Shown here: positions 6,261-35,519 of the stretch, piece after piece
Layout of the letters: each line of letters begins with the position of its first letter
Position numbering within the stretch: the stretch's first letter is position 1
Assembly (NCBI GenBank): GCA_964217375.1
Contig: CAXPJQ010000047.1
Span: 1-39,613 of the forward strand
Direction: 5' to 3'
Origin: Bdellovibrionales bacterium
Lineage (GTDB): Archaea > Nanobdellota > Nanobdellia > Woesearchaeales > UBA583
DNA: 39,613 nucleotides
Translations under genes and position numbers: made by a program
The notes under the pieces: model-generated
Databases searched by the model: none
Told to the model about the DNA's origin: nothing
What the model saw: only the letters and a program-made list of their open reading frames with translations

Positions 6261-6527
6261 ATGGTACAAGGTAAAGAAAAAATTTTATCAAAAAAATTAC
6301 TAGACAAAGTTGTTGTTAGTAAATCCGGTAAAAAATTTGGAGAAGTTGGGGATTTAATCTTTGACACAAAAACAGGAGAAATTATTGATTTTACAATTAT
6401 TAATACTACTAAGTATGTAAAAGACGTTTCTTTAGAAAAAGATACAAATGGAGACTTCTTAGTTCCATTCCATTCAGTAATTGCAATTGGTGACTTTGTA
6501 GTTATTTCAGAAGACGACATATTATAA
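6261..6527 (+). CDS. PRC-barrel domain protein, CdpB1-like
   Basis: LLDKVVVSKSGKKFGEVGDLIFDTKTGEI...LVPFHSVIAIGDFVVI, a standalone archaeal PRC barrel. Confidence 0.85.
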   Translation: MVQGKEKILSKKLLDKVVVSKSGKKFGEVGDLIFDTKTGEIIDFTIINTTKYVKDVSLEKDTNGDFLVPFHSVIAIGDFVVISEDDIL

Positions 6528-7090: not shown

Positions 7091-7366
7091 ATGGCAAGAT
7101 TCAAAAGAATTTCAGATGTTTACGAAATGAAGGTTTTTACAGATTCAGGATACTTCTTTGGAGAAGTAGAAGAAGCATTAATTGAAGAAAATAGAATTAA
7201 ATCATGGAAAATTAAAGCAGTTCCAGGATCTCTATTATCATCAAAAGTTAAAGATGCTAAAGGTGTTGTAATTCCTCAAAAGTTTTTCAAAGCATTTGGA
7301 GATATTATCATTATTCAAGACGTGGACTTTGGTGGAGCTTCAGAAGAAGCTGAATCTGAAGAATAA
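7091..7366 (+). CDS. PRC-barrel domain protein, CdpB2-like
   Basis: ISDVYEMKVFTDSGYFFGEVEE...GVVIPQKFFKAFGDIIII, acidic tail. Confidence 0.85.
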   Translation: MARFKRISDVYEMKVFTDSGYFFGEVEEALIEENRIKSWKIKAVPGSLLSSKVKDAKGVVIPQKFFKAFGDIIIIQDVDFGGASEEAESEE

Positions 7367-7682: not shown

Positions 7683-8357
7683 ATGGAATATAAGTTAATT
7701 ATTAACTCTAAAAATTATGAAGAATCTACTTTAGAAAATTTTAACCAAATTTTAAAAGCTTGTGAAAATTTAAATGATTATGCAAAAGATCTTGACGTTG
7801 AAATCATTTTATGTCCTTCAATTATTGATTTAAAGGAATCAACCAAATCAAATATTACAATTTATTCTCAACATATTGACCCTAAATATCCAGGTGCCCA
7901 AACAGGATTTATTATACCTAAATTAATTAAATCTCTTGGTGTTAAAGGTTCATTAATATCTCATTCTGAACACATTTTAAATTACGATCAAATTGAAAAA
8001 AATATCGGTTTTTGTAAAGAAAATGATTTATTTTCATGTGTTTGTGCACGTGATGAGAAATCAGCTGAAAAAATTTCTAAATTCCACCCTGATTTTATTG
8101 CAGTTGAACCTAAAGAATTAATTGGTGGTGATATTTCAATTTCAACTGCAAAACCTGAATTAATTACAAAATCTCTTGAAGTAATCTCTCAAGTAAAACC
8201 TATACCTAAACTCTTAGTTGGAGCTGGAGTTAAAAATCAAGAAGATGTTAAAAAATCAGTTGAACTTGGAGCTAAAGGGATTTTAGTAGCCTCAGGAGTT
8301 GTTAAAGCTCAAGATATTGAGGGAGCAATTAAAGATTTATTAGATGGTTTTAAATAA
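7683..8357 (+). CDS. tpiA: Triosephosphate isomerase, archaeal short type
   Basis: INSKNY (catalytic K), HSE, AVEPKELIG (catalytic E), GAGV, GILVASG; 224 aa. Confidence 0.95.
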   Translation: MEYKLIINSKNYEESTLENFNQILKACENLNDYAKDLDVEIILCPSIIDLKESTKSNITIYSQHIDPKYPGAQTGFIIPKLIKSLGVKGSLISHSEHILNYDQIEKNIGFCKENDLFSCVCARDEKSAEKISKFHPDFIAVEPKELIGGDISISTAKPELITKSLEVISQVKPIPKLLVGAGVKNQEDVKKSVELGAKGILVASGVVKAQDIEGAIKDLLDGFK

Positions 8358-8411: not shown

Positions 8412-8879
8412 ATGGTTAAAAAAAAACTTCCAGCTATTAAAAAATCATTAATTGATTTTGCTACAAAAGAAGATGCTAAGGTTATGGATAAAGCATTTAC
8501 AAAAGTTGCATTAGTTGGTTCAGTTTTAATTCTAGGTACTATTTCTGAAGTTAATGCAGGATCTCACACTAATCATGCAAATGAATTAACAATCCCTGGA
8601 TATGATATTTTAAATAATGAATACCCTGATGGAAAGCAAAGTGGTGGGAGGGTTAATGATGAAGAACATGAAGCTAGAAATCAATTAAGAGAAAAACCTA
8701 ATTTATTTAATCCAACTAATGATGTAAGTAATCCTCCAGTTTATTTATCTAATTTGCCAAGTGGATATGATGGTGATAGTGGGAGTGAGGTAATTTCAGT
8801 TCCTGCAAAAACAGTTGTTGCTCACCATGCAAATCATTATAATAAAATTACTTGGGGTAGTGGTGGAGGAAATTGTTAA
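8412..8879 (+). CDS. Candidate RiPP precursor or secreted peptide with His-Xaa-Asn motifs
   Basis: ATG 8412 (track starts at TTG 8406) lies 21 nt after TATATAAA 8383-8390. Basic leader, hydrophobic stretch, then HTN-HAN ... HAN-HYN...WGSGGGNC. Confidence 0.55.
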   Translation: MVKKKLPAIKKSLIDFATKEDAKVMDKAFTKVALVGSVLILGTISEVNAGSHTNHANELTIPGYDILNNEYPDGKQSGGRVNDEEHEARNQLREKPNLFNPTNDVSNPPVYLSNLPSGYDGDSGSEVISVPAKTVVAHHANHYNKITWGSGGGNC

Positions 8880-8881
8880 TT

Positions 8882-9943
8882 TTATTTATAATATATCACG
8901 CTATTTTTAATTTCTCCATTTTCTAAATATAAAGAAAATATTTTTGCATTTATATCAAATAAATTATTTTTTTTAAGTATTTCTATTTCTTTATTTTCAA
9001 ATGTTTCTATGTAAAATTCATATTTAGTATCAATTAATTTATAATTTCTATATTTTCTAATTCTATCGCATTGTTTATTTTCTAAAATTTTTTGAAGTTC
9101 ACAGGTATTGACTTTTTTATTAAAACTATAAAATTTTTCATAAATTTTAATTTCTCTATACTTTTGATAAATATCAATTCCAAAGTTAGTTAAAATTAAA
9201 TTATTTTCAATTTTTATTTTAAAATATTTTTCAATTAAATCTGCATTTTTTTGAGAATTTTTTTTAAGAGTAAAACCAGGGTAAAATGTTTTTCTTATTA
9301 ATTTATTATTTACATAACTAAATCCAATTGCATATAAAGCAATATCTTTATATATTTCTTGCTTTTTTACAAAGTTAATTAAATCTTTTTCAAAATTAAT
9401 TTCATTTAAAAAATTAACAAATTCTTTTTTTCTATTTTCATTAAATATATAGAAATAAAAAACAAATCTTTTTTTATTTTTTTCTTTAGGAAACATGAAA
9501 TAAGTATTAGGGAATTTCAAAATAAATTTTTTTAATAATTTAAATTCATAAAATTTATCAAAGTATCTATTTTCTTCAATTAACTTTTTTTGTTTTTGTA
9601 AAAGTTCAGTATTTTCTTTTAATTCAAATTTTTTTTTATCTCCCAAAAATGCTAGATACTGAAAATCCATTAATTTTAATAATTCTTCTTCTTTAAATCC
9701 TCTAAATTTAATCTTTTGATTATATAATACTTCTAAATTTTCCAACATTGTAAGTTCTTTTTTTATTATTTTATTTGATAATATATCTAATTCTTTTTCT
9801 TTAACTAGAGTTATTTTGAAGTCATTTTGTTTTAAAAATTGAATTATATCTTTAAATTTTTTAATTACATTTAAATCTAGATATATTTGTGAATCATTTT
9901 TTATATTTTCTATTTTATTTATTGAATTAATTCTCAGAACCAT
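8882..9943 (-). CDS. Hypothetical protein (353 aa)
   Basis: Long ORF, last gene of an overlapping three-gene operon; no confidently recognised family. Confidence 0.75.
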   Translation of the reverse strand: MVLRINSINKIENIKNDSQIYLDLNVIKKFKDIIQFLKQNDFKITLVKEKELDILSNKIIKKELTMLENLEVLYNQKIKFRGFKEEELLKLMDFQYLAFLGDKKKFELKENTELLQKQKKLIEENRYFDKFYEFKLLKKFILKFPNTYFMFPKEKNKKRFVFYFYIFNENRKKEFVNFLNEINFEKDLINFVKKQEIYKDIALYAIGFSYVNNKLIRKTFYPGFTLKKNSQKNADLIEKYFKIKIENNLILTNFGIDIYQKYREIKIYEKFYSFNKKVNTCELQKILENKQCDRIRKYRNYKLIDTKYEFYIETFENKEIEILKKNNLFDINAKIFSLYLENGEIKNSVIYYK

Positions 9944-10412
9944 TTATCAACTCCAGACATTTATCTTTGTAAATATATGTCATGCTACACATTATTGGAT
10001 CTTTAATATATACTGCATATGAATATAGACAATAATATTTATCTTGAGTTAAATCACATTTTTGAATATCTCCTGTCTTTCCAACATATGAGAGTATACA
10101 TTCATTTTGATTTTCTACTTCCTCACATAAAGAAATATCATTTTTAATTATTGCATATGCTATTATACACTTTTGAGAATTCTCTTCATACTGACAAATA
10201 TTAGAATCATTTAAATATATTGCCAAGTTATAATAACAAGACGAATTATTTGATGAATACTTGCAATAAGTATAATTTTTATTCTCTTTTGCAATTTTAA
10301 TTAAACAAAAATCACTCTCACATAATTCTATTAAATCTCTTTGTGGTATAAATGCAATAAGGAGAACAATAATTAAGATTCCAATTCCAAATATTAAATC
10401 TTTTTTATTCAT
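9927..10412 (-). CDS. Membrane-anchored Cys-rich repeat protein
   Basis: N-terminal TM followed by about five 23-aa repeats C-x8-C-x13 (12 Cys). Confidence 0.8.
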   Translation of the reverse strand: MNKKDLIFGIGILIIVLLIAFIPQRDLIELCESDFCLIKIAKENKNYTYCKYSSNNSSCYYNLAIYLNDSNICQYEENSQKCIIAYAIIKNDISLCEEVENQNECILSYVGKTGDIQKCDLTQDKYYCLYSYAVYIKDPIMCSMTYIYKDKCLELINGSEN

Positions 10413-11520
10413 TTTTATCCTCCTTTATATTATTTAAAATATTTTCACTCTCTTCTCTTAAATAGAAATATTTCTGTAGTGTATAATATCCATAAACTAT
10501 TAAAAATAATCCAATTATAATTAAAATTACATTTAAAATTAAATTTTGGAGTATCTTATAGCTCTCAAAAACAACATTTAAACTATTAATTAGAATTAAA
10601 AATCCAAATGATATTGCAACCCAATTATAAAACACTCTAATATTTTTTGGATATAGAAATGAGGTTATGAAAATTCCACAAAATAATCCAATCACGTGAG
10701 CAATTTCTGCTGAATTCATAAAATTGTTTGGTACTAATAATGAAATTGCAAATAAAATTCCAAGAATTAAAATTAGAGGAACTCTAATTACTCCAAATAT
10801 CTTAGTTGTAAGCATTGGTGTTCTCATTAAAAGTGCGCCAAGTAATCCAAATATTCCTGCAGATGCACCAACAACATATGAATTTTCTAAATTAAATAAT
10901 ACTTGAGACATATTTCCAATTATTGCCGATATTAAAAATATTAAAATATATTTACTATGTCCTAGGTATTTTTCAACTAGATGTCCAAGTAATATTAAAA
11001 CTGACAAATTAAGAATTAAATGAGTTAAATTTATGTGAATAAAAATTGAAGATAATATATTTGTTATATTAAAAGTATTTATATTTAAACCATATTTAAC
11101 TAAATTTGTTGTATTTAATTCAAAACTTAATTTATATGATATTATTAAAAATATAAAAATTAAAAGAGTATTAATTATTGGGAATATTGAACTTACATGT
11201 ATTTTTTCATATAAATTTTGTGCAAAATTATTTTTTGGAAATAATTTAATTTCTTCTTTGATTTCATTCATTGCAATTGAATTCTCACCTTCATAAAGTG
11301 CAATTAATCCAAAATATGTATGCACATTTTCAACTTTTCCATCTAACTCTAAAACTTCTTTTAAGTGATGTTTTGCCTTATCCATTTCATTTTTTTCATA
11401 ATAAAATTGTGCAAGTGCTAGAGTTAATGCAATTAATTTTTCTTTATTATTTTCATTTTTTTTATATTCTAATCTAGTTTGATGGTACTCTTTAATTAAT
11501 TCATGAAAATAATCTGACAT
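10405..11520 (-). CDS. Rhomboid intramembrane serine protease with N-terminal TPR region
   Basis: HINLTHLILN (HxxxN), VGASAG (catalytic S), AHVIG (catalytic H); TPR-like LAQFYYEKNEMDKAKHHLKEVLEL. Confidence 0.9.
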   Translation of the reverse strand: MSDYFHELIKEYHQTRLEYKKNENNKEKLIALTLALAQFYYEKNEMDKAKHHLKEVLELDGKVENVHTYFGLIALYEGENSIAMNEIKEEIKLFPKNNFAQNLYEKIHVSSIFPIINTLLIFIFLIISYKLSFELNTTNLVKYGLNINTFNITNILSSIFIHINLTHLILNLSVLILLGHLVEKYLGHSKYILIFLISAIIGNMSQVLFNLENSYVVGASAGIFGLLGALLMRTPMLTTKIFGVIRVPLILILGILFAISLLVPNNFMNSAEIAHVIGLFCGIFITSFLYPKNIRVFYNWVAISFGFLILINSLNVVFESYKILQNLILNVILIIIGLFLIVYGYYTLQKYFYLREESENILNNIKEDKNE

Positions 11521-14045: not shown

Positions 14046-15137
14046 ATGGTTTTTTCCACAAAAGTCATGAATTTACTTCCAAAGGAAGTTATTAAGATTA
14101 AGTCTCCATCTTTTAATAAGATGTTGGTTGTTTTAGCTCAAGCTAATCAAGGAATTTGCTTACAACAAGCTTGTGAACAAACGGGAGTATTTGCTCATTC
14201 CAAGCAAATATTAGATTATTTTAAGAGTTTTAAGCTCAAAGAAATTCAAGATTTCTTTTTGTTTACATCTCTTGAGATGTTGAAACAAAGTATACCTAAA
14301 CTTAATTTGAGACAAATTAAGTTAGCAGTTGACATTACTGAAGAAGATTATTATGGTAGCTTAGATAATTTGTATATCTGGAATAGAAATCCTAAAAAAG
14401 CTAAAAATGGTACAACTGGCCATTTTAAATATTTAACAATTAGTTGTACATCCAAAGGATGTAAACTAATTTTATTTAATATGTTACTAGGTCCAGGATA
14501 TCAAGTTGATGAATTAATTCCTTCAGTTTTGAAGGAAATTAAAAAAATTATCCATATCCAACAAGTTACTTTTGATCGTGGTTTTGATAACCATAAACTA
14601 GTTTATGAGTTAGAAAAAATCAAAGTAAATTACATTATTTTTTCAAAGAAAAATAAAGCAACTAAAAAGATTTTTGAGAATATTTGGATAGGTGAATCTT
14701 ATTCAAAGATTCGAACTTTAAAATTCTACAAACTTGGAGAAAAGTATACTTGTGATGCTAAATTTGTTTATATTAAAGCTTTTCAGTTCAAAGAAACTGA
14801 AGAAGCTTATGATTGGATATTTATTACAAATATGTCTTTTAAATCAGTTAGACACACGATTGGGAGCTATCGAAATCGTTGGGGAATTGAAACTACATTT
14901 AGAGTTTTGAAACAAGATTTTAGGATTAAAACATGCTCTAAACACCAGTCAGTTAGACTTATGTGTTTTACATTTTCAATGTTATTTTACAATATTTGGC
15001 AAATTGCCAAATATTTTATCTCAAGAAAAATTAAAGCTAAAAGTTTCTTTGAAACTATAAGATTTGGTTTTAAAATTAAATTTGGATTAAAATATCAGTT
15101 TGAAAAAGAGATACTTGACTTTTTTGGTTTAAGTTAA
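14046..15137 (+). CDS. DDE transposase (ISH3/IS4-like)
   Basis: AVDITEEDYYG (D1), FDRGF (D2), YRNRWGIETTFRVLK (YREK motif, E). Confidence 0.93.
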   Translation: MVFSTKVMNLLPKEVIKIKSPSFNKMLVVLAQANQGICLQQACEQTGVFAHSKQILDYFKSFKLKEIQDFFLFTSLEMLKQSIPKLNLRQIKLAVDITEEDYYGSLDNLYIWNRNPKKAKNGTTGHFKYLTISCTSKGCKLILFNMLLGPGYQVDELIPSVLKEIKKIIHIQQVTFDRGFDNHKLVYELEKIKVNYIIFSKKNKATKKIFENIWIGESYSKIRTLKFYKLGEKYTCDAKFVYIKAFQFKETEEAYDWIFITNMSFKSVRHTIGSYRNRWGIETTFRVLKQDFRIKTCSKHQSVRLMCFTFSMLFYNIWQIAKYFISRKIKAKSFFETIRFGFKIKFGLKYQFEKEILDFFGLS

Positions 15138-17166: not shown

Positions 17167-18180
17167 ATGAATACTAAGATTCCATCTAATTTAAGCTTTG
17201 GAAGAACTCCCAAAAGATTTTGGATTGTTGATAAAACTGCTGAAGCAATAAATGGAGATATATTTGATATCCATGAATTTAGATCTTTTTCTGGACCAAT
17301 TTCAAATATAATTAATCTAATTATTTCTCCATATTATGCTTTAAAAATTCCTAAAAAAGAAATTTATATAGTTGGAGCTCCTGCAGTTATGCTTGCTTTA
17401 AAAATTAAAAGACATATATTTTATCAAAAGTTCAAAATGATTCATTTTGTGAAAAATGATTTTTATAATAGAAATAGACATAAAGGATTAAAAAGAAAGT
17501 TTATGGATTACCTAGCAAAAGATGTTGATGGGGCAATTGTACCTGGGGAAATGATAAAAAAAGAAATTAGAGAAAAATTTAATTTTCCAATAGAAATAAG
17601 TTATCATTTTACTAAAGATGATACTTATTTTAAGATTAAGCCTGACTTAAAAAGTAGAGATGTGATTTCAATTGGAATTCAACCTAAATTAAGAAAAGGA
17701 ACAGATATTTTTTATAAAGTAGCAAAAGAAATGAAAAATAAAAAGTTTTATTTATTAGGAGAGTTTAATATATTAGAAGAAGATTTAAAAAATAAAATAT
17801 CTAATCAAAAAAACATTACTGCTCCAGGATTTGTTCCTCCTAAAGAATATTTGGAAAAAAGTACTTTCTTTCTTTTACCTGGAAGATATGATGCAGGTCC
17901 AATAGCAATCACTGAAGCATTAGCTGCAGGATTAATTCCAATTTGTAGTAATAGTCTTGGAGCTCAAGACCTAGTTAAAAAACTTAGAGAAGATTTAGTA
18001 ATTTCTTCTGAAAACCCTCAAGACTATATAAATAAACTAGATGAATTGACAAACCTTCCTGAAAAAGAAATTGAAAAACTTTCAAATAAAGCAAAAAAGA
18101 TTGCAAATGATTTTAATTTAGAAAATGGTAAAAAAGATTATAGAAATAAATTTTTAAAACTATTAAAAAAAATCAATTAA
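17167..18180 (+). CDS. Glycosyltransferase, GT4-like
   Basis: RKGTD and YDAGPIAITEALAAGLIPI GT-B motif. Confidence 0.85.
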   Translation: MNTKIPSNLSFGRTPKRFWIVDKTAEAINGDIFDIHEFRSFSGPISNIINLIISPYYALKIPKKEIYIVGAPAVMLALKIKRHIFYQKFKMIHFVKNDFYNRNRHKGLKRKFMDYLAKDVDGAIVPGEMIKKEIREKFNFPIEISYHFTKDDTYFKIKPDLKSRDVISIGIQPKLRKGTDIFYKVAKEMKNKKFYLLGEFNILEEDLKNKISNQKNITAPGFVPPKEYLEKSTFFLLPGRYDAGPIAITEALAAGLIPICSNSLGAQDLVKKLREDLVISSENPQDYINKLDELTNLPEKEIEKLSNKAKKIANDFNLENGKKDYRNKFLKLLKKIN

Positions 18181-18184
18181 AAAT

Positions 18185-19186
18185 TTATTTTGAAATTGAT
18201 TCTATTTTTTGTGATTTTTTATTGAAGAAATCATTTTGTTTTAATTTTTTCCACCAATTTTTATTATCTTCATACCATTTTAGAGTATCTTTAAAACCCT
18301 CTTCAAAACTAATTTCTTGTTTCCACCCTAAAGACTCTAATTTATTAATATTAACACTATACCTTAAATCATTAAAAGGCCTATCTTCTACAGAATCAAT
18401 ATAACTATCATCTTTTCCAAAATAGTTTAAAATTTTTTTTGCAATTTCTAAATTTGAAAACTCATCTTTAGTACCAATATTATAAAATTCTCCAATTTCT
18501 CCTTTATGAAAAATGACATCTACGGCTCTAGCTGTATCTTCAACATGTAAATAAGTTCTAATAGGATGAGGACTATGAAGAGGAACTTTTTTATCTTCCA
18601 TTAAATCAGTTGAAAACCTAGGAATAATTTTTTCAGGGTATTGATATGGACCATAATTATTATTACCTCTAGTAATAATAATTGGCATATTAAAAGATTT
18701 AATGTAAGATTGAACAATCATCTCAGCTGCAGCCTTTGAAGCAGAGTAAGGATTATTAGGACATAATTTATCTTCTTCTTCAAAAGAACCATCTAAAATG
18801 TCACCATAAACTTCATCAGTACTTACATGAATGAACCTTTTAATGTTTGAGATTCTTGATGCTTCAAGTAAAACATGAGTTCCATATGTGTTTGATTTTG
18901 TAAACATTAATGAATTACCAATTGAATTATCAACATGACTCTCTGCAGCAAAATGAATTACAGCATCCATATCTTTTAATAATTCAACTAAAAAATTTAA
19001 ATCACAAACATCACCTTTTATAAATTTATAATTTGGAAAATCCTCTAAATCCCTTAAATTATCTAAATTACCTGCATAAGTTAAAGCATCATAATTAATA
19101 ATTTCATAATTTGGATATTTATTTAAAAAATATCTTAAAAAATTACTCCCAATAAAACCTGCTCCTCCAGTTACTAAAATTTTCAT
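18185..19186 (-). CDS. rmlB: dTDP-glucose 4,6-dehydratase
   Basis: VTGGAGFIG, LTYAGN, HFAAESHVD, STDEVYG, PYSASKA, NNYGPYQYPEK. Confidence 0.95.
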   Translation of the reverse strand: MKILVTGGAGFIGSNFLRYFLNKYPNYEIINYDALTYAGNLDNLRDLEDFPNYKFIKGDVCDLNFLVELLKDMDAVIHFAAESHVDNSIGNSLMFTKSNTYGTHVLLEASRISNIKRFIHVSTDEVYGDILDGSFEEEDKLCPNNPYSASKAAAEMIVQSYIKSFNMPIIITRGNNNYGPYQYPEKIIPRFSTDLMEDKKVPLHSPHPIRTYLHVEDTARAVDVIFHKGEIGEFYNIGTKDEFSNLEIAKKILNYFGKDDSYIDSVEDRPFNDLRYSVNINKLESLGWKQEISFEEGFKDTLKWYEDNKNWWKKLKQNDFFNKKSQKIESISK

Positions 19187-21018
19187 TCTTTCTTATCAAA
19201 ATAATCCTTAATTATATTAAGGGAACTACTAATATTAAATTCAGGTTCCCAGTTTATAAACTTTTTTAACTTGCTAATATCCATACAAAAAGATTCCAAA
19301 TCTGAATTTTTTTTAGGTTCAATTGATACTTCGATATCCTCATAATTTTCATTTATAAATTTAATAAAATCACTAACATAAGTTTTTTTACCTGAACCAA
19401 TATTAAAAGTTTCATTAATGGAACTTGGGTTTTGAATTAATAAAAATAAAGCTTTTACAAAATCATCAATATAAATAAAATCTTTAAAAGTTTCTTCAGG
19501 AATGTCAAAATAAACTTTTTTTTTATCTAATAGATTTTGGAAAAAAGTTTTTTCAAATGTTATCTTATTTGAAAAATTTCTAGATAAGCCCAAAACATTT
19601 GAATTTCTTGTAAAAATTATTGGTAAATTATGATTATTAGAGTAATCTCTATATACTTTTTCAAGTTCATTTTTAGCATCACCATAAGGATGATTTGAAA
19701 AAAGAGTAGTATCTTCTAAATAAATTAAATTTGAATTGTCATATTGCATTCTTGAACCAAGAAATATATTTAAACAAGAATTATTGTGATTTTTACAGAA
19801 ATCTAAAATCATTTTATCTAAAATAAAATTAAAATCTTTTGGAAAAGTAAAATTTAAAATTAAATCTGCTTCTTTTAAATGATCTTTTAAAATTAAAAAG
19901 TCATCATCTTCCAAATTAAAATTTACAATTTTATATTTTTTAACAAAATCTAAATATAAATTATATTTAGAGGAATTTATATTAAAATTTCTTTCAACTA
20001 AAATAATATTATTAAAATTTTGAGAATCTAAATACTTTAACATATTTTCACCAATAAAACCTAGTCCTCCAAAAATAACAATCTTTGAATTTGAATTTAT
20101 ATTAAAAATCATCTTTTTATAATACTCGATAGTTCTTTTTAAACCCTCTTTAATATCAAATTTGATATCCCAATTTAATTTTTTTTTTAATAATGAAGGA
20201 TCAAGATTAGATAAATTTAGAGAATCTACTCTTTCACCCCTAATATCAATAATTGATTTGGAATTAGTTATTTTAATTATTTCTTTAGCATAATCTTCTA
20301 AAGAGATTGTAATTTCATTACATAAATTAAATATTCCATTAGAATTTGAATCCATAGCTTTTATATAAGCTGAGAGTAAATCTTCAATATATATAAAATT
20401 AATTAAATATAGAGGATTACCATCAATTCTTAGAGGTTTGTTATTTAATGCATTTAAAATAAAATTTGTAGTTATTGCACCGTATTTTGGATTTTGTCCA
20501 GGCCCATAAATATTAGAATTTCTAAAAGCTACAAAATCTAAACCTTTTTTTGAAAAATTAGATAATAAATTTTCAATTTCTAATTTAGTTTTGCCATAAA
20601 TTGTGGTGGGATTTGGAATTGAATTTTCATTAAGTATTTTATCATTACAATTACCATATACTTTAATAGAAGAGGCATAAATAATTTTAGAATTATTATT
20701 AAGAGCAAAATCAAATAATTTTCCAGAGGCATAAATTATTTCTTGAGAGTAATCTTCTTCATTTCTAATTCCATGTGAAATTGCACCTGGCGCTAATTGA
20801 TAAATATAGTCAAAATAAGGTAGATTTTCAAGATAGGAATTAGGAATTAAAAAATCACCTTCAATAATATTTAATTTATCAAGAAGATTTTGTGAAAAAA
20901 TATCTAAATTGTTTCTATCCCTAACTAAAATAGAAATTTCTAAATCTAAATTAACTAAATATTTAACTAAATTTGAACCTATAAATCCAGTAGCTCCAAT
21001 AACTAAAACTTTCTTCAT
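19183..21018 (-). CDS. Tandem two-domain NAD-dependent epimerase/dehydratase
   Basis: Two extended SDR units: GATGFIG...YGKTK and GGLGFIG...YGDAK. Confidence 0.85.
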   Translation of the reverse strand: MKKVLVIGATGFIGSNLVKYLVNLDLEISILVRDRNNLDIFSQNLLDKLNIIEGDFLIPNSYLENLPYFDYIYQLAPGAISHGIRNEEDYSQEIIYASGKLFDFALNNNSKIIYASSIKVYGNCNDKILNENSIPNPTTIYGKTKLEIENLLSNFSKKGLDFVAFRNSNIYGPGQNPKYGAITTNFILNALNNKPLRIDGNPLYLINFIYIEDLLSAYIKAMDSNSNGIFNLCNEITISLEDYAKEIIKITNSKSIIDIRGERVDSLNLSNLDPSLLKKKLNWDIKFDIKEGLKRTIEYYKKMIFNINSNSKIVIFGGLGFIGENMLKYLDSQNFNNIILVERNFNINSSKYNLYLDFVKKYKIVNFNLEDDDFLILKDHLKEADLILNFTFPKDFNFILDKMILDFCKNHNNSCLNIFLGSRMQYDNSNLIYLEDTTLFSNHPYGDAKNELEKVYRDYSNNHNLPIIFTRNSNVLGLSRNFSNKITFEKTFFQNLLDKKKVYFDIPEETFKDFIYIDDFVKALFLLIQNPSSINETFNIGSGKKTYVSDFIKFINENYEDIEVSIEPKKNSDLESFCMDISKLKKFINWEPEFNISSSLNIIKDYFDKKE

Positions 21019-21089
21019 AATAAAATCTAAAATAAAGGATATTTTAAATTTTTACATATACTTTTAAATAGAAAGAAAGAAATATTATT

Positions 21090-21611
21090 ATGACACCTAA
21101 AAAATTAAACCTTGGTTGTGGTGGTAATTATCTTAAAAATTTTACAAATTTAGATTACAACAAAGAAAATAAAGCAGATGTATATCATAATCTAGAAAAA
21201 TTTCCTTATCCCTTTAAAGATAATGAATTTGATTATATTTTAATGGATGCAGTATTAGAACACCTAGAAAATCCAGTTAAAGTGTTAAAAGAGTTAAAAA
21301 GAATATCAAAAAAAGATAGCATTGTTAAAATAAAAGTTCCACATTTTACTTCAACTATAGCTTTTGGAGATTTAACCCATAAACATTTTTTTTCATATGA
21401 TTCTGTTAATGTGGAAGAAGAAAAAGGGATTGGATTTAATACTTATTTTAATGTAGTTAAAACAAAAATAAAATTTGGTAAAAAATTTGCAATATGGAAT
21501 TATATAATTGAACATATTGCAAATAAATTTCCAAAATTATATGAAGGAACACCTCTTAGAATATTTCCTGCATTTACAATGGAAGTTATATTAAAAAATA
21601 ATAAGAATTAA
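21090..21611 (+). CDS. Class I SAM-dependent methyltransferase
   Basis: KLNLGCG, PYPFKDNEFD, VLEHL, VPH. Confidence 0.85.
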   Translation: MTPKKLNLGCGGNYLKNFTNLDYNKENKADVYHNLEKFPYPFKDNEFDYILMDAVLEHLENPVKVLKELKRISKKDSIVKIKVPHFTSTIAFGDLTHKHFFSYDSVNVEEEKGIGFNTYFNVVKTKIKFGKKFAIWNYIIEHIANKFPKLYEGTPLRIFPAFTMEVILKNNKN

Positions 21612-22648
21612 ATTAAATCTTCATAAGTTTCTTTATATTTTTTTATCATTATTTTTTTATCAAAAAACTTTTCAACTCTAAGTCTTGCATTAAAACCATA
21701 TTTCTTTTGTTTATTATCATCAAAAATAACTAAGTTTATTTTTTTAATCATATCATTAATATTTTTTGGTTTTACATAAATTACACTATCTCTACAAAAT
21801 TCTTTGATATGAGGTAAATCTGAGGTAATTACTGTTCTCCCACATGCCATTGCTTCAATTACAACTAAAGGAGTTGCAATAGCTCCTCCTATATGCCTAT
21901 AGGGAAAAAATAAAATATCGTTATTATTATATTCTTTAATTATATCATCAACAACTCCATAAATTTCAATTGAAGGATCAATTGAATTTATATAACTTCT
22001 AAACTTTGAAGTAATATTTGTAACATAAATTCTTTTTGTAACTCTTTTACTATCTAATTTAGAAAAAACATTTACAACTTCAATTAAACCTTTTGAAGTA
22101 GATAAATGACCAAAATAGGCAATAGATTTTTTTTTAGATTTTTTTAAATTTAAATTTTTAAATTTGTCTAAATCAATACCATGATTAATAACTTTAACAT
22201 TTTTTAAATTTAACATATTTTTTAAAAATATACTTGGAACAATAATTAAATCAAACTTTCTAAAAAAGAACCTTTTTATAAAAACTGGTGTTAATAAACT
22301 AATTGATCTAAAAAAAATTTTTTTAAACCTAATAAGAAAAGGATAATAATCATCTCTAGTATCTGAAATATATTTATAGAAGTCAAACTGATCTTTTAGG
22401 TCTTCAAAAAAATTAATTCCTAAATTTGAATGTAGAGAGTATATAGAACGTACATTACTTTTTTTAAATTTAATAGCTTCTACAAACCCAGAACTATGAA
22501 TATTAATTAAATCCGGTTTTACTTTTGATTTGTTAATAGAAATATTATAAAATTTAGATAAATCTAAATTTAATTTTTTTACAATTTTAACTAAACCCTC
22601 AAAGGAGTGATCTGAAAAATCTCCTTTAAATAAAATATTTTTTTTCAT
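21608..22648 (-). CDS. Glycosyltransferase GT4
   Basis: NHGIDL, YFGHLSTSKG, PLVVIEAMACG. Confidence 0.9.
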   Translation of the reverse strand: MKKNILFKGDFSDHSFEGLVKIVKKLNLDLSKFYNISINKSKVKPDLINIHSSGFVEAIKFKKSNVRSIYSLHSNLGINFFEDLKDQFDFYKYISDTRDDYYPFLIRFKKIFFRSISLLTPVFIKRFFFRKFDLIIVPSIFLKNMLNLKNVKVINHGIDLDKFKNLNLKKSKKKSIAYFGHLSTSKGLIEVVNVFSKLDSKRVTKRIYVTNITSKFRSYINSIDPSIEIYGVVDDIIKEYNNNDILFFPYRHIGGAIATPLVVIEAMACGRTVITSDLPHIKEFCRDSVIYVKPKNINDMIKKINLVIFDDNKQKKYGFNARLRVEKFFDKKIMIKKYKETYEDLI

Positions 22649-22656
22649 TTTAGAAA

Positions 22657-23685
22657 TTAAAAGTTTAATAATACTTTTAAAATTTCATCTTTGGATAAAA
22701 TATTTTCTGAAGAAGAAGACTCAAAACTTTCTTTAGAAGATTTTGAAAAACCTTTTGAAATTAACTTATCTACTTGACTTTGAGTAGAAAATGAAGAAAC
22801 TCTAACAAACATTTTTTCATTTTCATATAAATATTCTTTTTCTCCTTTATTAAGTAATTCTTCATGAAGTTTTTCTCCTAAACGAGTTCCAATAACAATT
22901 CTTTTTGATTCAGGAATATTTTTTAGATTACAATATGAATCAAAAAAATCTTTCATTATAACTGAGGGCATTTTAAAAATAAAAGTTTCTCCAAATTCAG
23001 AGTAATATGTTGCTGAAAAAATTAGATTAACTGATTGAGGAATACTCATGAAGAATCTAGTCATATCAGGATTTGTCAAAGTTAAATTATTGTTTGATTT
23101 AATTTGATTATCCCAAATTTCAAGAACTGAACCTCTAGAATATAATACATTTCCAAATCTTACAATCCCAAACTTTGAATTCCTTCTCATATCTGAATTT
23201 GCAATAGCTGAAACTAATTTTTCTGCTAAAAGTTTTGTAGTACCCATAACATTACCTGGATTTGCAGCCTTATCGGTACTAATTAAAATCATTTTCTCAA
23301 CATTATTCCCAATTACTGCATCAATAACATTTCTAGTACCTAAAATATTTGTATTAATTGCCTCATATGGATTTTCTTCAGACATAATAACATGTTTCAT
23401 AGCGGCTGCATGAAATACAATATCTACAGATTTTAAAAGCTCATTTATTCTCCTAAAGTTTCTAACATCTCCCAATTTGAATTCTAATTTTTGATTTGAA
23501 TTATTAGTATTAAATAAAGATTTTTTGTAAAACATCTCAGTTTCCCTATTATCTATAATTATTAATTTTTTGATATTATAACCTAAAAGCATTGACACAA
23601 TTTCAGACCCAATACTACCAATACCTCCAGTTACTGCAATAGTTTTATTTGAAAATAATTTTTCAAGTTCTTCTCTTGATACCAT
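22657..23685 (-). CDS. UDP-GlcNAc 4,6-dehydratase family (CapD/PglF/PseB-like, soluble)
   Basis: VTGGIGSIG, FHAAAMKHV, STDKA, MGTTK (MxxxK type), RFGNVLYSRGSV, MTRF, GEKLHEEL. Confidence 0.9.
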   Translation of the reverse strand: MVSREELEKLFSNKTIAVTGGIGSIGSEIVSMLLGYNIKKLIIIDNRETEMFYKKSLFNTNNSNQKLEFKLGDVRNFRRINELLKSVDIVFHAAAMKHVIMSEENPYEAINTNILGTRNVIDAVIGNNVEKMILISTDKAANPGNVMGTTKLLAEKLVSAIANSDMRRNSKFGIVRFGNVLYSRGSVLEIWDNQIKSNNNLTLTNPDMTRFFMSIPQSVNLIFSATYYSEFGETFIFKMPSVIMKDFFDSYCNLKNIPESKRIVIGTRLGEKLHEELLNKGEKEYLYENEKMFVRVSSFSTQSQVDKLISKGFSKSSKESFESSSSENILSKDEILKVLLNF

Positions 23686-23725
23686 AAAATTAAATTTAAC
23701 TTTTCTAGTTATAAACTTTTAGTTT

Positions 23726-24907
23726 TTATTTAAGATAAATATTAATATAACTCTCAATGTAATTCTTTGGTTCATATTCTAGAGCTGTTTTTCTTGCTTC
23801 AATACCAAACTTTTCAATATCAATTTTACTTGCTTTTAAAATTACATTTGCTAAATCCCCTTTTTTTTTAGGATTAAATATAAAGCCAGTTTTATTTTCT
23901 TTAATTAAATCAGGTATTGCTCCCCTATTTGAACCAATTACTGGACGATAATATCCCATTGATTCTGGAATAACTAAGCCAAAAGATTCTTGAATTAGAC
24001 TTGGTAAAATTAAAAATTTATTTTTTTTATAATAATTATTTAAATTAACCCAACCTAAAAATTTAATATTTTCATTTAGACCTAACTTAGTAACTTTTAA
24101 TTTCAATTCTTTTTCTAATGAACCTGTACCCGCAATGTTTAACTTTAAGGATTTATCTTTTTTAAATGCTAAAATAAATTCATCTAAAAGAACTTTTAAT
24201 CCTTTATTTTCTTCTAATTGACCTCCATATAAAAATGAATTACCTTCAATTTTATCAAAATCATAATTAGTTTTATTTTTAAATTCAACCGGATAAGGAA
24301 CAATTTTTGTTTTTTTAAAACCTTGTTTGTTTAAATAAATAGATAGCTTTTGAGTTGCAGTTACAAAAAGGTTAATTTTTTTTTGAAGAATATTTTTTCT
24401 TTTATAAAAAAAATAAATCAAAATTAAATAAGTTAAAATATTATAGTTCCTTTTATGTTTCCAAAAACAATCTTTAAAATTAAAACCCGAACTACAAGGA
24501 CTTAAATCATTATGAACATTCCACAAAGTAGGACAAATTAAACCGTAATCATGTACTGAATAAATAACTTTAACTTTTTTAGGTAAAGCTCTTAAAATTG
24601 AAATTGTATATTTATTAATATTTTGAAGGTGAATTATGTCTGGATTTACTTTTTTAATATGGTTTGAGATTTGGAAATATTTAATTGGATTTAAAAAAAT
24701 CCTCCAAAAAAATCTAATAAATACATTTCCTGATTCTTTTAAAATTAATAAATTCTTAGCCCTTGATTTTCTAACTCCAAAAGATAGGGTGTAGATTTCA
24801 AAATTTTTATTTTTATCTAAATTATTTTTTAAAGTAAAAAAAACTTTTTCTGCCCCCCCACCATTAGGATTATAGCTATCTGAAATAAATAAAATTTTTT
24901 TCATCAT
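23726..24907 (-). CDS. Glycosyltransferase GT4
   Basis: GGGAE, HDYGLICP, ENKG, ESFGLVIPESMG. Confidence 0.9.
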   Translation of the reverse strand: MMKKILFISDSYNPNGGGAEKVFFTLKNNLDKNKNFEIYTLSFGVRKSRAKNLLILKESGNVFIRFFWRIFLNPIKYFQISNHIKKVNPDIIHLQNINKYTISILRALPKKVKVIYSVHDYGLICPTLWNVHNDLSPCSSGFNFKDCFWKHKRNYNILTYLILIYFFYKRKNILQKKINLFVTATQKLSIYLNKQGFKKTKIVPYPVEFKNKTNYDFDKIEGNSFLYGGQLEENKGLKVLLDEFILAFKKDKSLKLNIAGTGSLEKELKLKVTKLGLNENIKFLGWVNLNNYYKKNKFLILPSLIQESFGLVIPESMGYYRPVIGSNRGAIPDLIKENKTGFIFNPKKKGDLANVILKASKIDIEKFGIEARKTALEYEPKNYIESYINIYLK

Positions 24908-25269
24908 TTATACCTTCTATAAAATAAAAAAAATCCTGCAAGTATCATTAAAAATGAAACTAACCAATTAAATTTTAAAATGTTTACTTTAATTATAATA
25001 TTAATAATATAAAGTAACAAAGGTTGAACTCCATAACCTATCCCTAAACCTAAAATTAACCTTTCAGAAAAGGAAATTTTATCAATATAATAAAGTATTA
25101 AAAAATATCCTGGCAAAATAAATAAAAATAAATGTGCTAAAGTTAATTTGAAAATAAAAAATAAAGATTCGAGGTAATAATGACTTAAGAAAAATAAAAA
25201 TAAAAATAAAGATAATATTGAAATTATTTTTAATTCTTCAAAAAATAAATTTTTAATTTTTTTTTTCAT
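24904..25269 (-). CDS. Small membrane protein
   Basis: Likely ATG at 25269, just after the upstream stop; about 4 TM; FILPGY...ERLILGLGIG. Confidence 0.7.
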   Translation of the reverse strand: MKKKIKNLFFEELKIISILSLFLFLFFLSHYYLESLFFIFKLTLAHLFLFILPGYFLILYYIDKISFSERLILGLGIGYGVQPLLLYIINIIIKVNILKFNWLVSFLMILAGFFLFYRRYK

Positions 25270-25270
25270 T

Positions 25271-26986
25271 TTAATTAGTACCTCTTTTTTCAACATTTAA
25301 ACTTGTTTGAGTGAAACAACTTGAATTTAAGTTATTATTTTCTAAAATAACACTTAAACCATTATTATATAAAATATCAAAATTACTTTCATTTATTAAT
25401 TTATTTGCAATTAATATTGAGTACTTTGCAAAGTTAGGATTTCTAGTTTGAGATTCAAAATAAATATATCTATACTCACAAAGAGTTTTATTTACTTTTT
25501 GAGGAATAAATCCTGGATTAATAAACCATGAATCCTGAGACAATTCAAATTTATGATGGATTGGGAAGGAATCAACTAAAAAAGTATTTTTTAGAGTCAA
25601 AGAGTTTAAACTATCAATATAGTCTTTTTCTTGAATTAAATGGTATGGAATCCTAGCGGGAGTAAAAGATGCTTTTTGACTACAGGAATTACAATTTAAA
25701 ATTAAAAGAGTTTGATCTTCTTCAAGATTCTCACTCATCCAAACTTGAGCTTCATATACCTGAGGCATAATAATTGAATCCTGAGAAATTTCTTTGAAAT
25801 TTGAAAACAAACCAACATATAAAATTAAAAGTGAAAAAATAAATCCTGTAAATATTAACTTTAAATTCTCTTTAAGTTTAGTTATAATTACTAAAAAAAA
25901 TAAAAAAATAAAAGGCATAAATGTAATTAAATAAAAAGCTCTTGCTTGAGGCAAATTATTTCCAAAAAATTTTATAATTCCAGATAAGATTAAAAATAAA
26001 GATATAATCCCAATAATATCCATATTAATATTTTTTTTATTTTTAAAGAAAAATATAAACCAAAAAAGTAAACCAATTAAGGCTAAGTATAAAAAAATAT
26101 ATAAATCACTAAAAGTTACTTGATGGAAAAGAGGATTATAATTCCAAACAATTAAACCCTCAGATTTATCTGAGTTAGATTCTACAAAAGAAAACATTGC
26201 TTTCCACCATGGAAATATAAAAATAATCGATATGAAAACTGAATATAGAAATAATTTAGACCTAATAAAAAAATCTTCAGTTTTAAAATAAGAGAGGTAT
26301 TCTTTAAAATTAAATATTTTAAAATAAACTTTTTCTTTAAAAAAATAAAGTAAGAAAAATAAAACAATACCTAAATTAAAAGATTGAAATTCTCTTCCAT
26401 GTGAAAGAAAAGAAGCGGCATTTAAAATACCTAAAATAAAAAACATACCTTTTTCTTTAATATGAATAAATGCTAAAATTGAAATTACTACTAAAAAAAT
26501 ATTCATATTACCAATATTCCCTCCCCAGTTTATAATAAAAGTATATGGCCAAGAAAATAAAAGAAAAAACATAGGTAAAGTTAAAAGAGAAGCTAGAGTA
26601 TTTATTTTTCTTAGAATTACATACATTGATAAAATTGAAAAAAGAATAAATATAATATTAAAATGAATTACCAAATTAAAAGATTCAGTATCTAAAAAAC
26701 TCGATATTTGAGCATTAAGAATCCCACTTAAAGGAGAAAAAAAATTATAAGAATCGTTATGATTTCCACTCAAATAATTAGGAACTTTTTCTAAGTTATC
26801 ATTATATTTAGCTGCATCTGCATAAGCACTAAAGATAAACATATCATTAGCATGAATTTGATTAGGCGTATTATGATCTAATTTCCCATTATCAAAGACT
26901 GAAGAAAAATAAATCAATGAAAAAAAAAATATTAAAAGAAGAGAAATCTCAAATTTATTAGATTTTATTTTTTTAAAAATATCCAT
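25271..26986 (-). CDS. Large polytopic membrane protein, possibly GT-C-fold glycosyltransferase
   Basis: About 12 TM, Asp-containing loop after TM1 (HANDMF), soluble C-terminal domain (AQVWMSEN); located in the glycan locus. Confidence 0.55.
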   Translation of the reverse strand: MDIFKKIKSNKFEISLLLIFFFSLIYFSSVFDNGKLDHNTPNQIHANDMFIFSAYADAAKYNDNLEKVPNYLSGNHNDSYNFFSPLSGILNAQISSFLDTESFNLVIHFNIIFILFSILSMYVILRKINTLASLLTLPMFFLLFSWPYTFIINWGGNIGNMNIFLVVISILAFIHIKEKGMFFILGILNAASFLSHGREFQSFNLGIVLFFLLYFFKEKVYFKIFNFKEYLSYFKTEDFFIRSKLFLYSVFISIIFIFPWWKAMFSFVESNSDKSEGLIVWNYNPLFHQVTFSDLYIFLYLALIGLLFWFIFFFKNKKNINMDIIGIISLFLILSGIIKFFGNNLPQARAFYLITFMPFIFLFFLVIITKLKENLKLIFTGFIFSLLILYVGLFSNFKEISQDSIIMPQVYEAQVWMSENLEEDQTLLILNCNSCSQKASFTPARIPYHLIQEKDYIDSLNSLTLKNTFLVDSFPIHHKFELSQDSWFINPGFIPQKVNKTLCEYRYIYFESQTRNPNFAKYSILIANKLINESNFDILYNNGLSVILENNNLNSSCFTQTSLNVEKRGTN

Positions 26987-27130
26987 AATATTTATTTAAT
27001 ATTTGTATTTAAAAGTTTAACTAATTATTTAATCATATTTATTTAAGAAAAAATTAATTCTAATTTTTAATAAAAGAAAAAAGAAAATATCTACAAAAAC
27101 TTATAAAAGAAAAAAATTGAATTATAAATA

Positions 27131-27595
27131 ATGAATCTAAAAAAGTTTATTGAAAAAGAAAATATTAATTTTAATAACATTTTAAGTCCTAAATTTGTAT
27201 TTAACTTGCTATATAAATATAAATATATTCATTTTTTTTTAACTGGGGCATCTGGTGCTTTAGTAGCATTAATTATTATTGCATTATTGACTGAATTTAT
27301 ATTTGGTCAAGAAAAATATTTTACTGCATATCTAATTGGGTTGTTATTAAATCTAATATATAATTTCACATTACATACTAAAATTAGCTTTAAAACTAAA
27401 AAAAAACATATTAGAAGATTTACAATTTTTATTACTTATTCTCTAATTATGGCTTCAATTCAAGCAACAATTGTTAAGATATTTACTCCAATATTGGGCT
27501 TAGAATACTATCTTTTTGTAATTGCTTCAACGATATTATTGTTTTCAATAATTAATTTTTTTTCTTGTAAATTATTAATATTTTTTGAAAAATGA
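27131..27595 (+). CDS. GtrA-family protein
   Basis: FFLTGASG, NFTLH..ISFK, RF..F, INF...KLLIF; 4 TM. Confidence 0.85.
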   Translation: MNLKKFIEKENINFNNILSPKFVFNLLYKYKYIHFFLTGASGALVALIIIALLTEFIFGQEKYFTAYLIGLLLNLIYNFTLHTKISFKTKKKHIRRFTIFITYSLIMASIQATIVKIFTPILGLEYYLFVIASTILLFSIINFFSCKLLIFFEK

Positions 27596-27646
27596 ATTTT
27601 TACTACCGTTAAATTTAAAAAGAACAATTCTCTTATATTATTTATA

Positions 27647-29784: not shown

Positions 29785-29786
29785 AA

Positions 29787-31012: not shown

Positions 31013-31014
31013 AA

Positions 31015-34539: not shown

Positions 34540-34540
34540 T

Positions 34541-35110: not shown

Positions 35111-35168
35111 AAAAAGAAAGAAAATTTAGAATTTATAAAATTTTGTTATTATACTAGTAATAATTAAA

Positions 35169-35516: not shown

Positions 35517-35519
35517 TTT

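Follow-up and report, generated by a model that had tools for sequence, protein, structure and literature searches.

A candidate HxsA-like precursor with His-Xaa-Asn motifs in a DPANN archaeon and its probable trans-encoded HxsB/HxsD maturases

The precursor locus

The window analysed in the present study, the whole 39,613-nucleotide stretch of contig CAXPJQ010000047.1 (assembly GCA_964217375.1), comes from a small DPANN archaeon and encodes a protein, referred to here as the precursor, whose N-terminal leader and His-Xaa-Asn (HxN) motifs point to modification by radical S-adenosylmethionine (SAM) enzymes of the HXS type. Its gene stands behind the triosephosphate isomerase (TIM) gene and faces the gene of a 353-residue protein, X353; genes for a Cys-rich protein and a rhomboid protease lie beyond (Table 1). 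An initial annotation, made from the letters alone, had proposed an archaeal precursor peptide at this place, and the open reading frame (ORF) carries every element listed for it in its translation: a leader (residues 1 to 24), a hydrophobic stretch ending SEVNA (residue 49), H-T-N-H-A-N (residues 52 to 57), an 80-residue spacer made up of ∼30% Pro, Asn and Gly, H-A-N-H-Y-N (residues 139 to 144) and the tail ITWGSGGGNC. A mechanical ORF list starts the gene at TTG 8406, which adds ‘MN’; the ATG at 8412 is the likely start, because all homologues begin MKKKLP.

At the His and Asn frequencies of this genome, HxNHxN is expected 1.5e-4 times per 155 residues. In the 298,920 residues of ORFs of at least 100 amino acids (aa), the motif occurs three times against 0.30 expected, and two of the three occurrences fall in the precursor. 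No other ORF of at least 30 aa in the assembly contains two HxNHxN tandems, and no other ORF of the assembly has two tandem H-x-[SN] pairs; the precursor is also the sole member of its family there. A TATA-like octamer precedes the gene. Since the window has a G+C content of 24%, a lone AT-rich match means little, and it is the constant position that constitutes evidence: the octamer starts 28 to 31 nt upstream of the ATG in 13/13 family loci examined. The TATA box attributed to the gene is thus borne out, and its placement supports a predicted promoter of its own with a very short or absent 5' leader.

Table 1. Coordinates of the precursor gene, its elements, its neighbors and the related features named in the text. 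Positions without a prefix refer to the window.
Feature	Position	Strand	Remarks
Candidate HxsA-like precursor/effector gene, His-Xaa-Asn type	8412..8879	+	155 aa, stop included at 8879
TATA-like element TATATAAA	8384..8391	+	28 nt upstream of ATG
Leader, Lys-rich, residues 1-30	8412..8501	+	predicted helix 8-18; proposed HxsB/HxsD recognition sequence
Hydrophobic helix ending V-N-A, residues 31-49	8502..8558	+	signal-peptide-like h- and c-regions
Core motif 1, H-T-N-H-A-N-E-L, residues 52-59	8565..8588	+	
Core motif 2, V-P-A-K-T-V-V-A-H-H-A-N-H-Y-N, residues 130-144	8799..8843	+	
Triosephosphate isomerase, archaeal type	7683..8357	+	PF00121, E 3e-30; directly upstream of precursor
X353, 353 aa, convergent partner	8882..9943	-	predicted ABBA (PT-barrel) prenyltransferase-like fold
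Cys-rich protein, 161 aa, N-terminal membrane helix	9927..10412	-	syntenic with precursor in genus
Rhomboid intramembrane protease with N-terminal tetratricopeptide repeats (TPR)	10405..11520	-	PF01694, E 7e-26; syntenic with precursor in genus
Two small PRC-barrel proteins	6261-6527; 7091-7366		
DDE transposase (PF01609)	14046-15137		
Large glycosylation cluster	17167-36233		
ADP-heptose-pathway/heptosyltransferase-like genes	31015-35110		within glycosylation cluster
HxsB, two fragments	C40:4702-5949; C49:3-299		other contigs of this assembly
Multi-pass membrane protein, 394 aa	C49:743-1927		follows HxsD
Paralogue of the 394-aa membrane protein	C40:659-1843		3 kb beyond HxsB
Same membrane protein in relative G356	L041:8328-9518		follows HxsD
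Lnt-like genes (CN_hydrolase)	L036:5969-7465 (G040); L026:10385-11836		TIGR00546 76.7 bits, below cutoff; loci without X353
370-452-aa family members	L033:9836-11062; L031:5316-6575; L036:4604-5962; L026:11757-13028; L021:4306-5418; L022:5059-6237		
Canonical HxsB of G226 and G282	L043:6031-7755; L044:6586-8313		∼575 aa
Long HxN family member of G226	L034:7363-8214		

A conserved leader and conserved HxN motifs define the family

A word-based search returned six homologues of the precursor with 45-99% identity, and an exhaustive profile search of 1.84 billion representatives returned 52 proteins at E<=0.001, 12 of them at E<=1e-10; none of the family proteins found carries a name or a Pfam domain. 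The set of 55 sequences used for the counts below consists of the profile matches minus P0056, a long repeat protein (E 3.7e-4) excluded as unrelated, plus the near-identical P0001 and the close homologues P0002, P0004 and P0006. All 55 possess at least one HxN within residues 41 to 85, in tandem in 26. Beyond residue 60, the strict H.NH.N motif is present in 45/55 and a relaxed form in 53/55, one of the ten strict misses being a 68-aa fragment that carries the motif earlier. Tandem HxS triplets occur in none of the 55.

The family architecture is well defined. The Lys-rich leader follows a near-invariant K-x-L-P-x-x-K-K...F...E-D-A-K...K pattern, and the helix behind it terminates with (D)-[AV]-x-A. 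Next come between one and three H-x-N triplets, the last of which, H-x-N-x-hydrophobic, is invariant. The C-terminal part consists of a variable linker, the motif (V)-P-x-K-S-V-x-x-x-H-x-N-H-Y-N-H and a short tail rich in Gly, whose last residue is often W or C. In an alignment of 37 family members, H55, N57 and H139 are invariant, and A49, N141, H142 and N144 are conserved at 90% or more. Among the close homologues, H55, N57 and L59 of motif 1 are invariant, and identity to the precursor amounts to 78-91% in the leader, 75-88% in motif 2 (the most conserved part of the mature region) and 26-39% in the linker. A conserved leader and motif 2 on either side of a variable linker form the pattern expected of a recognized leader combined with constrained modification sites.

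Homologues therefore keep both the leader and the HxN motifs, as a precursor of this type should. The tandem reading of the first motif fared less well: H-T-N/H-A-N is present in the precursor itself, but H52-T-N54 is not kept even in its closest homologues, which read DYTTHAN or DVISHAN.

The full-length HxN type (E<=1e-15) was found, in a phylum-wide sample, in the genus of the window only (5/401 genomes, 1/280 genera). Some family members (the G226 protein of Table 1, P0037, P0045, P0040 and P0053) are 200-310 aa long; in these, either H-x-N-H-Y-N-H is followed by an additional hydrophobic segment rich in Gly/Ala and by an acidic tail, or the linker is much longer; their varied layout indicates that the effector part of the family is modular.

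Kinship with His-Xaa-Ser peptides encoded beside HxsB

The sole library match of the precursor is to NCBIfam HxsA3 over residues 6 to 55, with an E-value of 0.0025 that is negligible taken alone. The kinship becomes visible through the family profile, which also finds small ORFs of the same archaeal order that share only the N-terminal ∼60-70 residues with the precursor, end in His-Xaa-Ser (HxS) repeats and lie immediately downstream of HxsB genes. These archaeal peptides match HxsA3/HxsA4 at E 1e-14 to 1e-5, and the two adjoining HxsB genes that were compared with NCBIfam exceed the cutoff of 370 bits, at 452.7 and 431.3. Alignment of the HxN family with ten archaeal HxS peptides by hhalign gave 98.6% (E 6.7e-16) over 68 columns spanning the leader, the helix and the H-x-N-x-L motif; the H-x-N-x-hydrophobic motif is invariant in the HxS-type peptides too. 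The precursor itself contains zero HxS triplets, with HxN in their place.

The distribution of leader and enzyme is equally consistent. HxsB was detected in 55/201 sampled genomes of the order, above cutoff in 48. A leader-family match was tallied in 49/401 genomes, a count that includes two unpublished ones (G208 and G375) on which nothing else rests. Within the 201-genome HxsB sample, 27 genomes have a leader-family match, and 27/27 have HxsB. The peptide gene lies within 120 bp of HxsB in 16 of these and within 2.5 kb in three more; the two are on different contigs in five fragmented assemblies and unlinked in three genomes of the window's genus.

HxsB and a probable HxsD are encoded on other contigs of the genome

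Five radical SAM genes were identified in this genome. Four are housekeeping genes (two RlmN-like, a MiaB-like methylthiotransferase and TYW1), and the fifth is an HxsB homologue (TIGR03978, E 1.8e-100) with the motifs CNLGCDYC (CxxxCxxC) and, at the C-terminus, CxxCxxxxxC. It is recovered as two fragments that overlap by 41 identical residues, which indicates an intact HxsB of 473 aa; the end of contig C40 and the start of contig C49 share ∼113 nt, so the contigs are neighbors. An HxsD homologue (TIGR03976, E 9.5e-13) is divergently adjacent to HxsB. A Pfam search of the genome for the SPASM domain gave no match, a sensitivity miss given that HxsB has a SPASM-like Cys motif and that its orthologue in the complete relative G158 passes PF13186. 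No leader-family ORF was found beside HxsB/HxsD of this genome. The initial annotation had seen no radical SAM gene in the window and had reasoned that a maturase would have to act in trans; a peptide-modifying enzyme of the HxsB/SPASM family is indeed encoded, with a probable HxsD, on other contigs, and the pair would act on the precursor from there.

The chemistry suggested at the outset, that of the triceptides, is a separate matter. In such a RiPP, a peptide made on ribosomes and altered after translation, HxsB would link His-C2 to Asn-C-beta within each HxN triplet (-2 Da each), and small peptides would be released. The sites are suitable in kind, as HTK, HAA and HNR are reported as proven cyclophane substrates with His-C2 to X3-C-beta links (PMC11499958), and the models of the cyclophane synthases GrrM/OscB, YhhB, XyeB and FxsB do detect HxsB-type enzymes here, with E-values from 1e-11 to 1e-20. 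These matches, however, reach just 15-72 bits against cutoffs of 310-450 and are weaker than the matches to HxsB and to the thioether-forming PapB/SCIFF maturases. Moreover, the only HXS system studied by experiment is reported to undergo proteolysis and one +8 Da change at a single motif, with a protein-sized product (PMC13128918). In the precursor, a protein of 155 aa that has a signal-like helix, 80 residues separate the motifs, and conservation does not extend to the first triplet. We judge the triceptide reading unlikely.

Downstream of HxsD lies a gene for a 394-aa multi-pass membrane protein, with a paralogue beyond HxsB; relative G356 likewise has this protein after HxsD. A role as exporter is conceivable.

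Related loci unite the genes that are split in this genus

Genomic neighborhoods in relatives bring the components together. The metagenomic locus L022 carries, as an unbroken series, an HxsC-like radical SAM gene, the HxN precursor, a 392-aa gene, HxsD and HxsB. L021 contains the HxsC-like gene, precursor, X353, a 370-aa gene and HxsD before the contig ends, and in L025 the precursor and X353 are joined by HxsD and the first part of HxsB. The window's genus has these genes in two places: HxsD and HxsB share one of them, and the precursor locus, of the form (HxsC-like)-TIM-precursor-X353, usually followed by a 408-452-aa gene, the Cys-rich protein and the rhomboid protease, is found elsewhere. 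In this window, X353 directly abuts the Cys-rich gene. Relatives G356 (L033) and G040 (L036) have the HxsC-like gene just upstream of TIM, a position at which it is absent here; an HxsC-like gene thus stands near the precursor in G356, G040, L021 and L022.

In a maximum-likelihood tree of 22 HxsB sequences (midpoint-rooted, with a bootstrap not fully settled), the seven from HxN-precursor contexts are separated from the rest by a branch of length 0.97 (support 100/100). They include the HxsB of this genome and that of L022, which is physically linked to a precursor. Within the genus (eight genomes, which are not independent), the HxN precursor occurs in 6/8, and the divergent HxsB occurs in the same six. 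Of the other two, G386 lacks both systems, and the sole HxsB of G282 is canonical and accompanied by a His-Xaa-Ser peptide. G226 carries a canonical HxsB in addition to the HxN type, and hence two HXS-type systems. An HxsA-like working of the precursor is accordingly supported, at the level of genes, by leader homology, co-occurrence, HxsB orthology and physical clustering in relatives.

Two side observations concern these loci. The canonical HxsB proteins of G226 and G282 exceed the usual length by ∼100 aa. A conserved family of 370-452-aa genes lies inside or beside the HxN clusters, between precursor or X353 and HxsD or the Cys-rich gene (Table 1); it has no Pfam or NCBIfam match, and no homologue was found in this assembly.

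Predicted structure and export

The AlphaFold2 model of the precursor, built from 37 sequences, has a mean predicted local distance difference test (pLDDT) score of 65.5; residues 8-18 and 27-42 are predicted to be helical, and the mature part contains five short predicted strands. The maximal Kyte-Doolittle window covers residues 28 to 42. Signal-peptidase sites follow the -3/-1 rule, and on this rule the helix is proposed to be part of an export signal with cleavage before G50. An exported protein of ∼100 aa is a more likely product than a small peptide. Library and structure searches yielded little: no Pfam or PADLOC match was found, a PDB sequence profile search gave one irrelevant hit (E 1.1), and Foldseek returned 0 matches at E<=0.001 with what is a low-confidence model. 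In the ESM Atlas, the precursor matches an unnamed Woesearchaeota cluster at 0.84.

These results bear on whether the precursor is a type IV or Flp-like prepilin, or another known surface-structure subunit, the alternative raised alongside the initial annotation. The charged N-terminus and the hydrophobic helix after it bear a loose resemblance to prepilin leaders. The charged region, however, spans 30 aa and shares homology with HxsA-type leaders, pilin models of Pfam and NCBIfam do not match, and neither the sequence nor the fold search just described recovered a relative. The pilin alternative finds no backing in these searches and is very unlikely.

A second alternative is a secreted or membrane-anchored His/Asn-rich protein that stays unmodified, for example a metal-binding one, which would share ancestry with HxsA-type signals, HxsB/HxsD acting elsewhere or persisting as relics. 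It would account for the unlinked genes, for the HxsC-like gene not found in this assembly and for the moderately confident beta-structure in the mature region, and the conserved His residues could bind metal. Against it, 78-91% identity over a 30-aa n-region is not expected of a plain signal peptide, the divergent HxsB accompanies the precursor in 6/6 genus genomes and is absent from the two without it, the genes cluster physically in L022, L021 and L025, and no other candidate substrate was found in the assembly. Taken together, this makes an unmodified protein very improbable.

The neighbor X353 and possible lipidation

X353 is the convergent partner of the precursor gene. By sequence it stands apart, with no Pfam (E<=0.01), NCBIfam or PADLOC match, 0 PDB sequence matches at E<=10, and no membership in the prenyltransferase families PF11468, PF11991 and PF19156. 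Its AlphaFold2 model is confident (pLDDT 89.5, predicted template modelling score 0.82) and has 38 Foldseek matches in the PDB at E<=0.001 (TM scores 0.25-0.43); those listed are all ABBA prenyltransferases (AmbP1, NphB/Orf2, PagF, PatF, LimF, DMATS). VIA-align, spanning residues ∼108 to 353, ranks PatF first (Z 10.1, root-mean-square deviation 5.6 Å over 222 residues), followed by CymD (9.9), KgpF (9.7), and DciF and LimF (9.4 each); among the 50 matches listed, all are prenyltransferases, and Z values of 7-8 can arise without kinship. On the model, X353 is assigned to the ABBA prenyltransferase fold, at fold level, with moderate confidence. ESM Atlas clusters with prenyltransferase Pfam families match X353 at 0.85-0.90, which is a lead only.

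The model and the genome search used a nine-row alignment in which one row (L022:5059-6237) comes from a different family, ‘Y400’. The eight true homologues share 25 invariant residues, among which R159, Y163, R217, Y221, K266, Y268, E309 and Y339 lie on predicted strands. By residue type, this Arg/Lys/Tyr/Glu pattern resembles the lining of the PT-barrel diphosphate pocket. A word-based search with X353, in which the 7,999 candidates with the greatest word overlap were scored, returned four proteins. X353 was found in 5/401 genomes of the order, all in the window's genus and each time beside the precursor.

Among 13 HxN loci in which a downstream gene is visible, the gene next to the precursor encodes X353 in nine, an Lnt-like membrane acyltransferase in two, a member of the 370-452-aa family in one and an unknown 340-aa ORF in one. 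Two different lipid-transfer-type enzymes at one position suggest that the product may be lipidated, and X353 is proposed to be a tailoring or lipidating enzyme. A polyprenyl-diphosphate synthase is present in 4/4 related genomes carrying X353.

Proposed pathway and the points against it

The leader homology, the kept motifs and the HxsB/HxsD pair on other contigs support the initial proposal of an HxN-variant Hxs precursor in a DPANN-like archaeon with its maturase in trans. We regard it as likely that a DPANN-archaeal variant of the HXS radical SAM systems has the precursor as its substrate and, probably, also as its final effector. From the gene content we infer its chemistry, export, cleavage, lipidation and biological role as follows. 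The trans-encoded HxsB (radical SAM/SPASM) and HxsD pair would recognize the 30-aa Lys-rich leader in the cytoplasm, joined in related genomes by an HxsC-like radical SAM enzyme, and one or more of the motifs (H55-x-N57; H139-x-N141-H142-Y-N144) would be modified. Export would proceed via the hydrophobic helix ending V-N-A, which would be removed together with the leader, leaving a ∼100-aa His/Asn-rich protein outside the membrane. X353 would then tailor this product, probably by prenylation, a step that may fall to the Lnt-like acyltransferase in sister loci. On the model of bacterial HXS, the mature protein would act at the cell surface, where a barrier against viruses is its most plausible role. 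In its fullest form, a split-locus HXS relative specific to DPANN whose signal-bearing HxN protein is modified by divergent HxsB/HxsD (plus HxsC-like) enzymes and then prenyl-lipidated by an ABBA-fold enzyme not recognized before, or acyl-lipidated in sister loci, to become a lipid-anchored, His-rich antiviral surface barrier, the proposal is tentative and unlikely.

Several observations weigh against an HXS-type precursor in this genome. The precursor scores 17.6 bits against an HxsA3 cutoff of 65 and lies below the curated HxsA cutoffs (TIGR03979, NF038309, NF038313); it lacks HxS repeats, and only one triplet of motif 1 is constrained. HxsB reaches 334.9 bits (cutoff 370), the scored ORF being cut by the contig end, and HxsD 48.3 bits (cutoff 50), with its L022 orthologue above cutoff at 59.4. 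Precursor and HxsB/HxsD are on different contigs and ∼252 kb apart in the complete relative G158. An HxsC-like gene was not found in this 82%-complete assembly, by TIGR03977 at E<=1 or by phmmer with the proteins of three relatives, and the system may be incomplete here because HxsB, HxsC and HxsD are each reported as required in E. coli (PMC13128918). The beta-structure predicted in the mature part, two stretches of which have pLDDT 78-84, could reflect a small folded His-rich protein needing no modification. As for lipidation, X353 is prenyltransferase-like by fold only (Z ∼10, root-mean-square deviation 5.6 Å) with 0 sequence matches, and no polyprenyl-diphosphate synthase was found in this assembly.

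Other features of the window

The window is ordinary chromosome of a small archaeon whose assembly comprises 980,645 bp in 93 contigs; related records carry the labels Nanoarchaeota or Woesearchaeota. In addition to the genes described above, among which TIM is of a short archaeal type, it encodes the ribosomal proteins L15e and S8e, aRF1, TruD, ATP-binding cassette and major facilitator superfamily transporters, one DDE transposase, which is the sole obvious mobile element, and a large glycosylation cluster. No tRNA genes were found in the window. The ADP-heptose-like set within the cluster, unusual in an archaeon, comprises two GT9 glycosyltransferases, an HldE-like fusion of a PfkB kinase and a cytidylyltransferase, and a GmhA-like SIS-domain protein. 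The two PRC-barrel proteins are 98% and 93% identical to their counterparts in locus L008, and the genes around them just 38-70%; identity so far above that of the neighbors implies either very strong constraint or recent exchange.

The Cys-rich protein and the TPR-rhomboid protease keep synteny with the precursor throughout the genus and also in L026. One may speculate that the protease removes the precursor's leader or anchor. The Cys-rich protein has no Pfam, NCBIfam or PADLOC match. A Cys-rich membrane protein directly follows the peptide gene in the His-Xaa-Ser clusters L017, L019 and L044; the idea that the Cys-rich protein of the window is the same component as these is unsupported, with a BLASTP E-value of 0.21 against that of L017.

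Significance and comparison with known systems

HXS was shown to be a bacterial antiviral system only in 2026 and is reported as almost confined to Pseudomonadota (PMC13128918). HxsB/HxsD systems prove to be common in one DPANN order, at the frequency given above, and one genus holds a diverged version with an HxN motif, genes that would act in trans and a proposed prenyltransferase-fold tailoring partner. The long conserved leader offers a clean handle for studies of substrate recognition. The system raises the questions of what chemistry HxsB performs on His-x-Asn and His-x-Ser, how a radical-SAM-modified protein is exported in an archaeon without peptidoglycan, and whether such proteins serve ultra-small archaea against viruses or in host contact. 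Were the lipidated surface-barrier reading true, the system would count as the first of the HXS type in archaea, and its product as the first protein effector with both radical SAM and prenyl modifications. No description of an archaeal or His-Xaa-Asn HXS variant was found in the literature, whose supplements may list some; a survey of archaeal RiPP clusters mentions radical SAM classes in DPANN in generic terms (PMC12144867).

Close relatives are the archaeal His-Xaa-Ser peptides (HxsA3 NF038309/HxsA4 NF038313-like; for example, in L016, L017, L019 and L020), which have a homologous leader, helix and H-x-N-x-L motif, the same two-motif layout and C-terminal Gly-rich, Trp or Cys tails. They are 76-161 aa long, end in HxS repeats and are encoded directly downstream of a canonical HxsB above cutoff, whereas the HxN family carries HxNHYN, is associated with a divergent HxsB clade and has its genes unlinked within the genus.

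In E. coli, HXS is described as an antiphage system whose matured protein acts in the periplasm (Nat Commun 2026, PMC13128918); both the N-terminal processing and the +8 Da modification on one SHRSS motif require each of HxsB, HxsC and HxsD (PMC13128918). Like its bacterial counterpart, the archaeal system comprises a ribosomally made protein that has a signal-like N-terminal region and carries His-x-small-polar motifs, a radical SAM/SPASM enzyme of the HxsB family with a probable small HxsD (and, in relatives, an HxsC-like enzyme), and a product expected to be N-terminally processed and exported. It differs in its DPANN host, as 99.7% of HXS systems are reported from Pseudomonadota, and in its gene order, since 99.6% of them are D-B-C-A (PMC13128918) and the genes here are split over two loci. 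The precursor has two separated His-Xaa-Asn motifs in place of five His-Xaa-Ser repeats, a long conserved leader and no peptidoglycan-binding domain. A prenyltransferase-fold partner is added, no HxsC-like gene was found in this assembly, and the archaeal system is known here from its genes.

The ABBA peptide prenyltransferases PatF, PagF, KgpF and LimF resemble the predicted fold of residues ∼108 to 353 of X353 (Z 9-10), and the X353 gene, like those of cyanobactin-type prenyltransferases, adjoins a ribosomal peptide substrate. LimF prenylates histidine. X353 is set apart by an extra N-terminal alpha/beta domain of ∼107 residues and by the absence of detectable sequence similarity.

Finally, other radical SAM families produce three-residue cyclophanes that contain His (HTK, HAA, HNR; PMC11499958). 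Their systems (HtkA/HtkB, HaaA/HaaB, YhhA/YhhB; PMC11499958) share with the present one a SPASM-type maturase and a candidate aromatic(His)-X-X site, which the precursor offers in the conserved H55-A-N57, H139-A-N141 and H142-Y-N144. In contrast to the triceptides, the maturase here belongs to the HxsB family and probably not to a characterized cyclophane synthase family, and the substrate is protein-sized with a predicted export signal.

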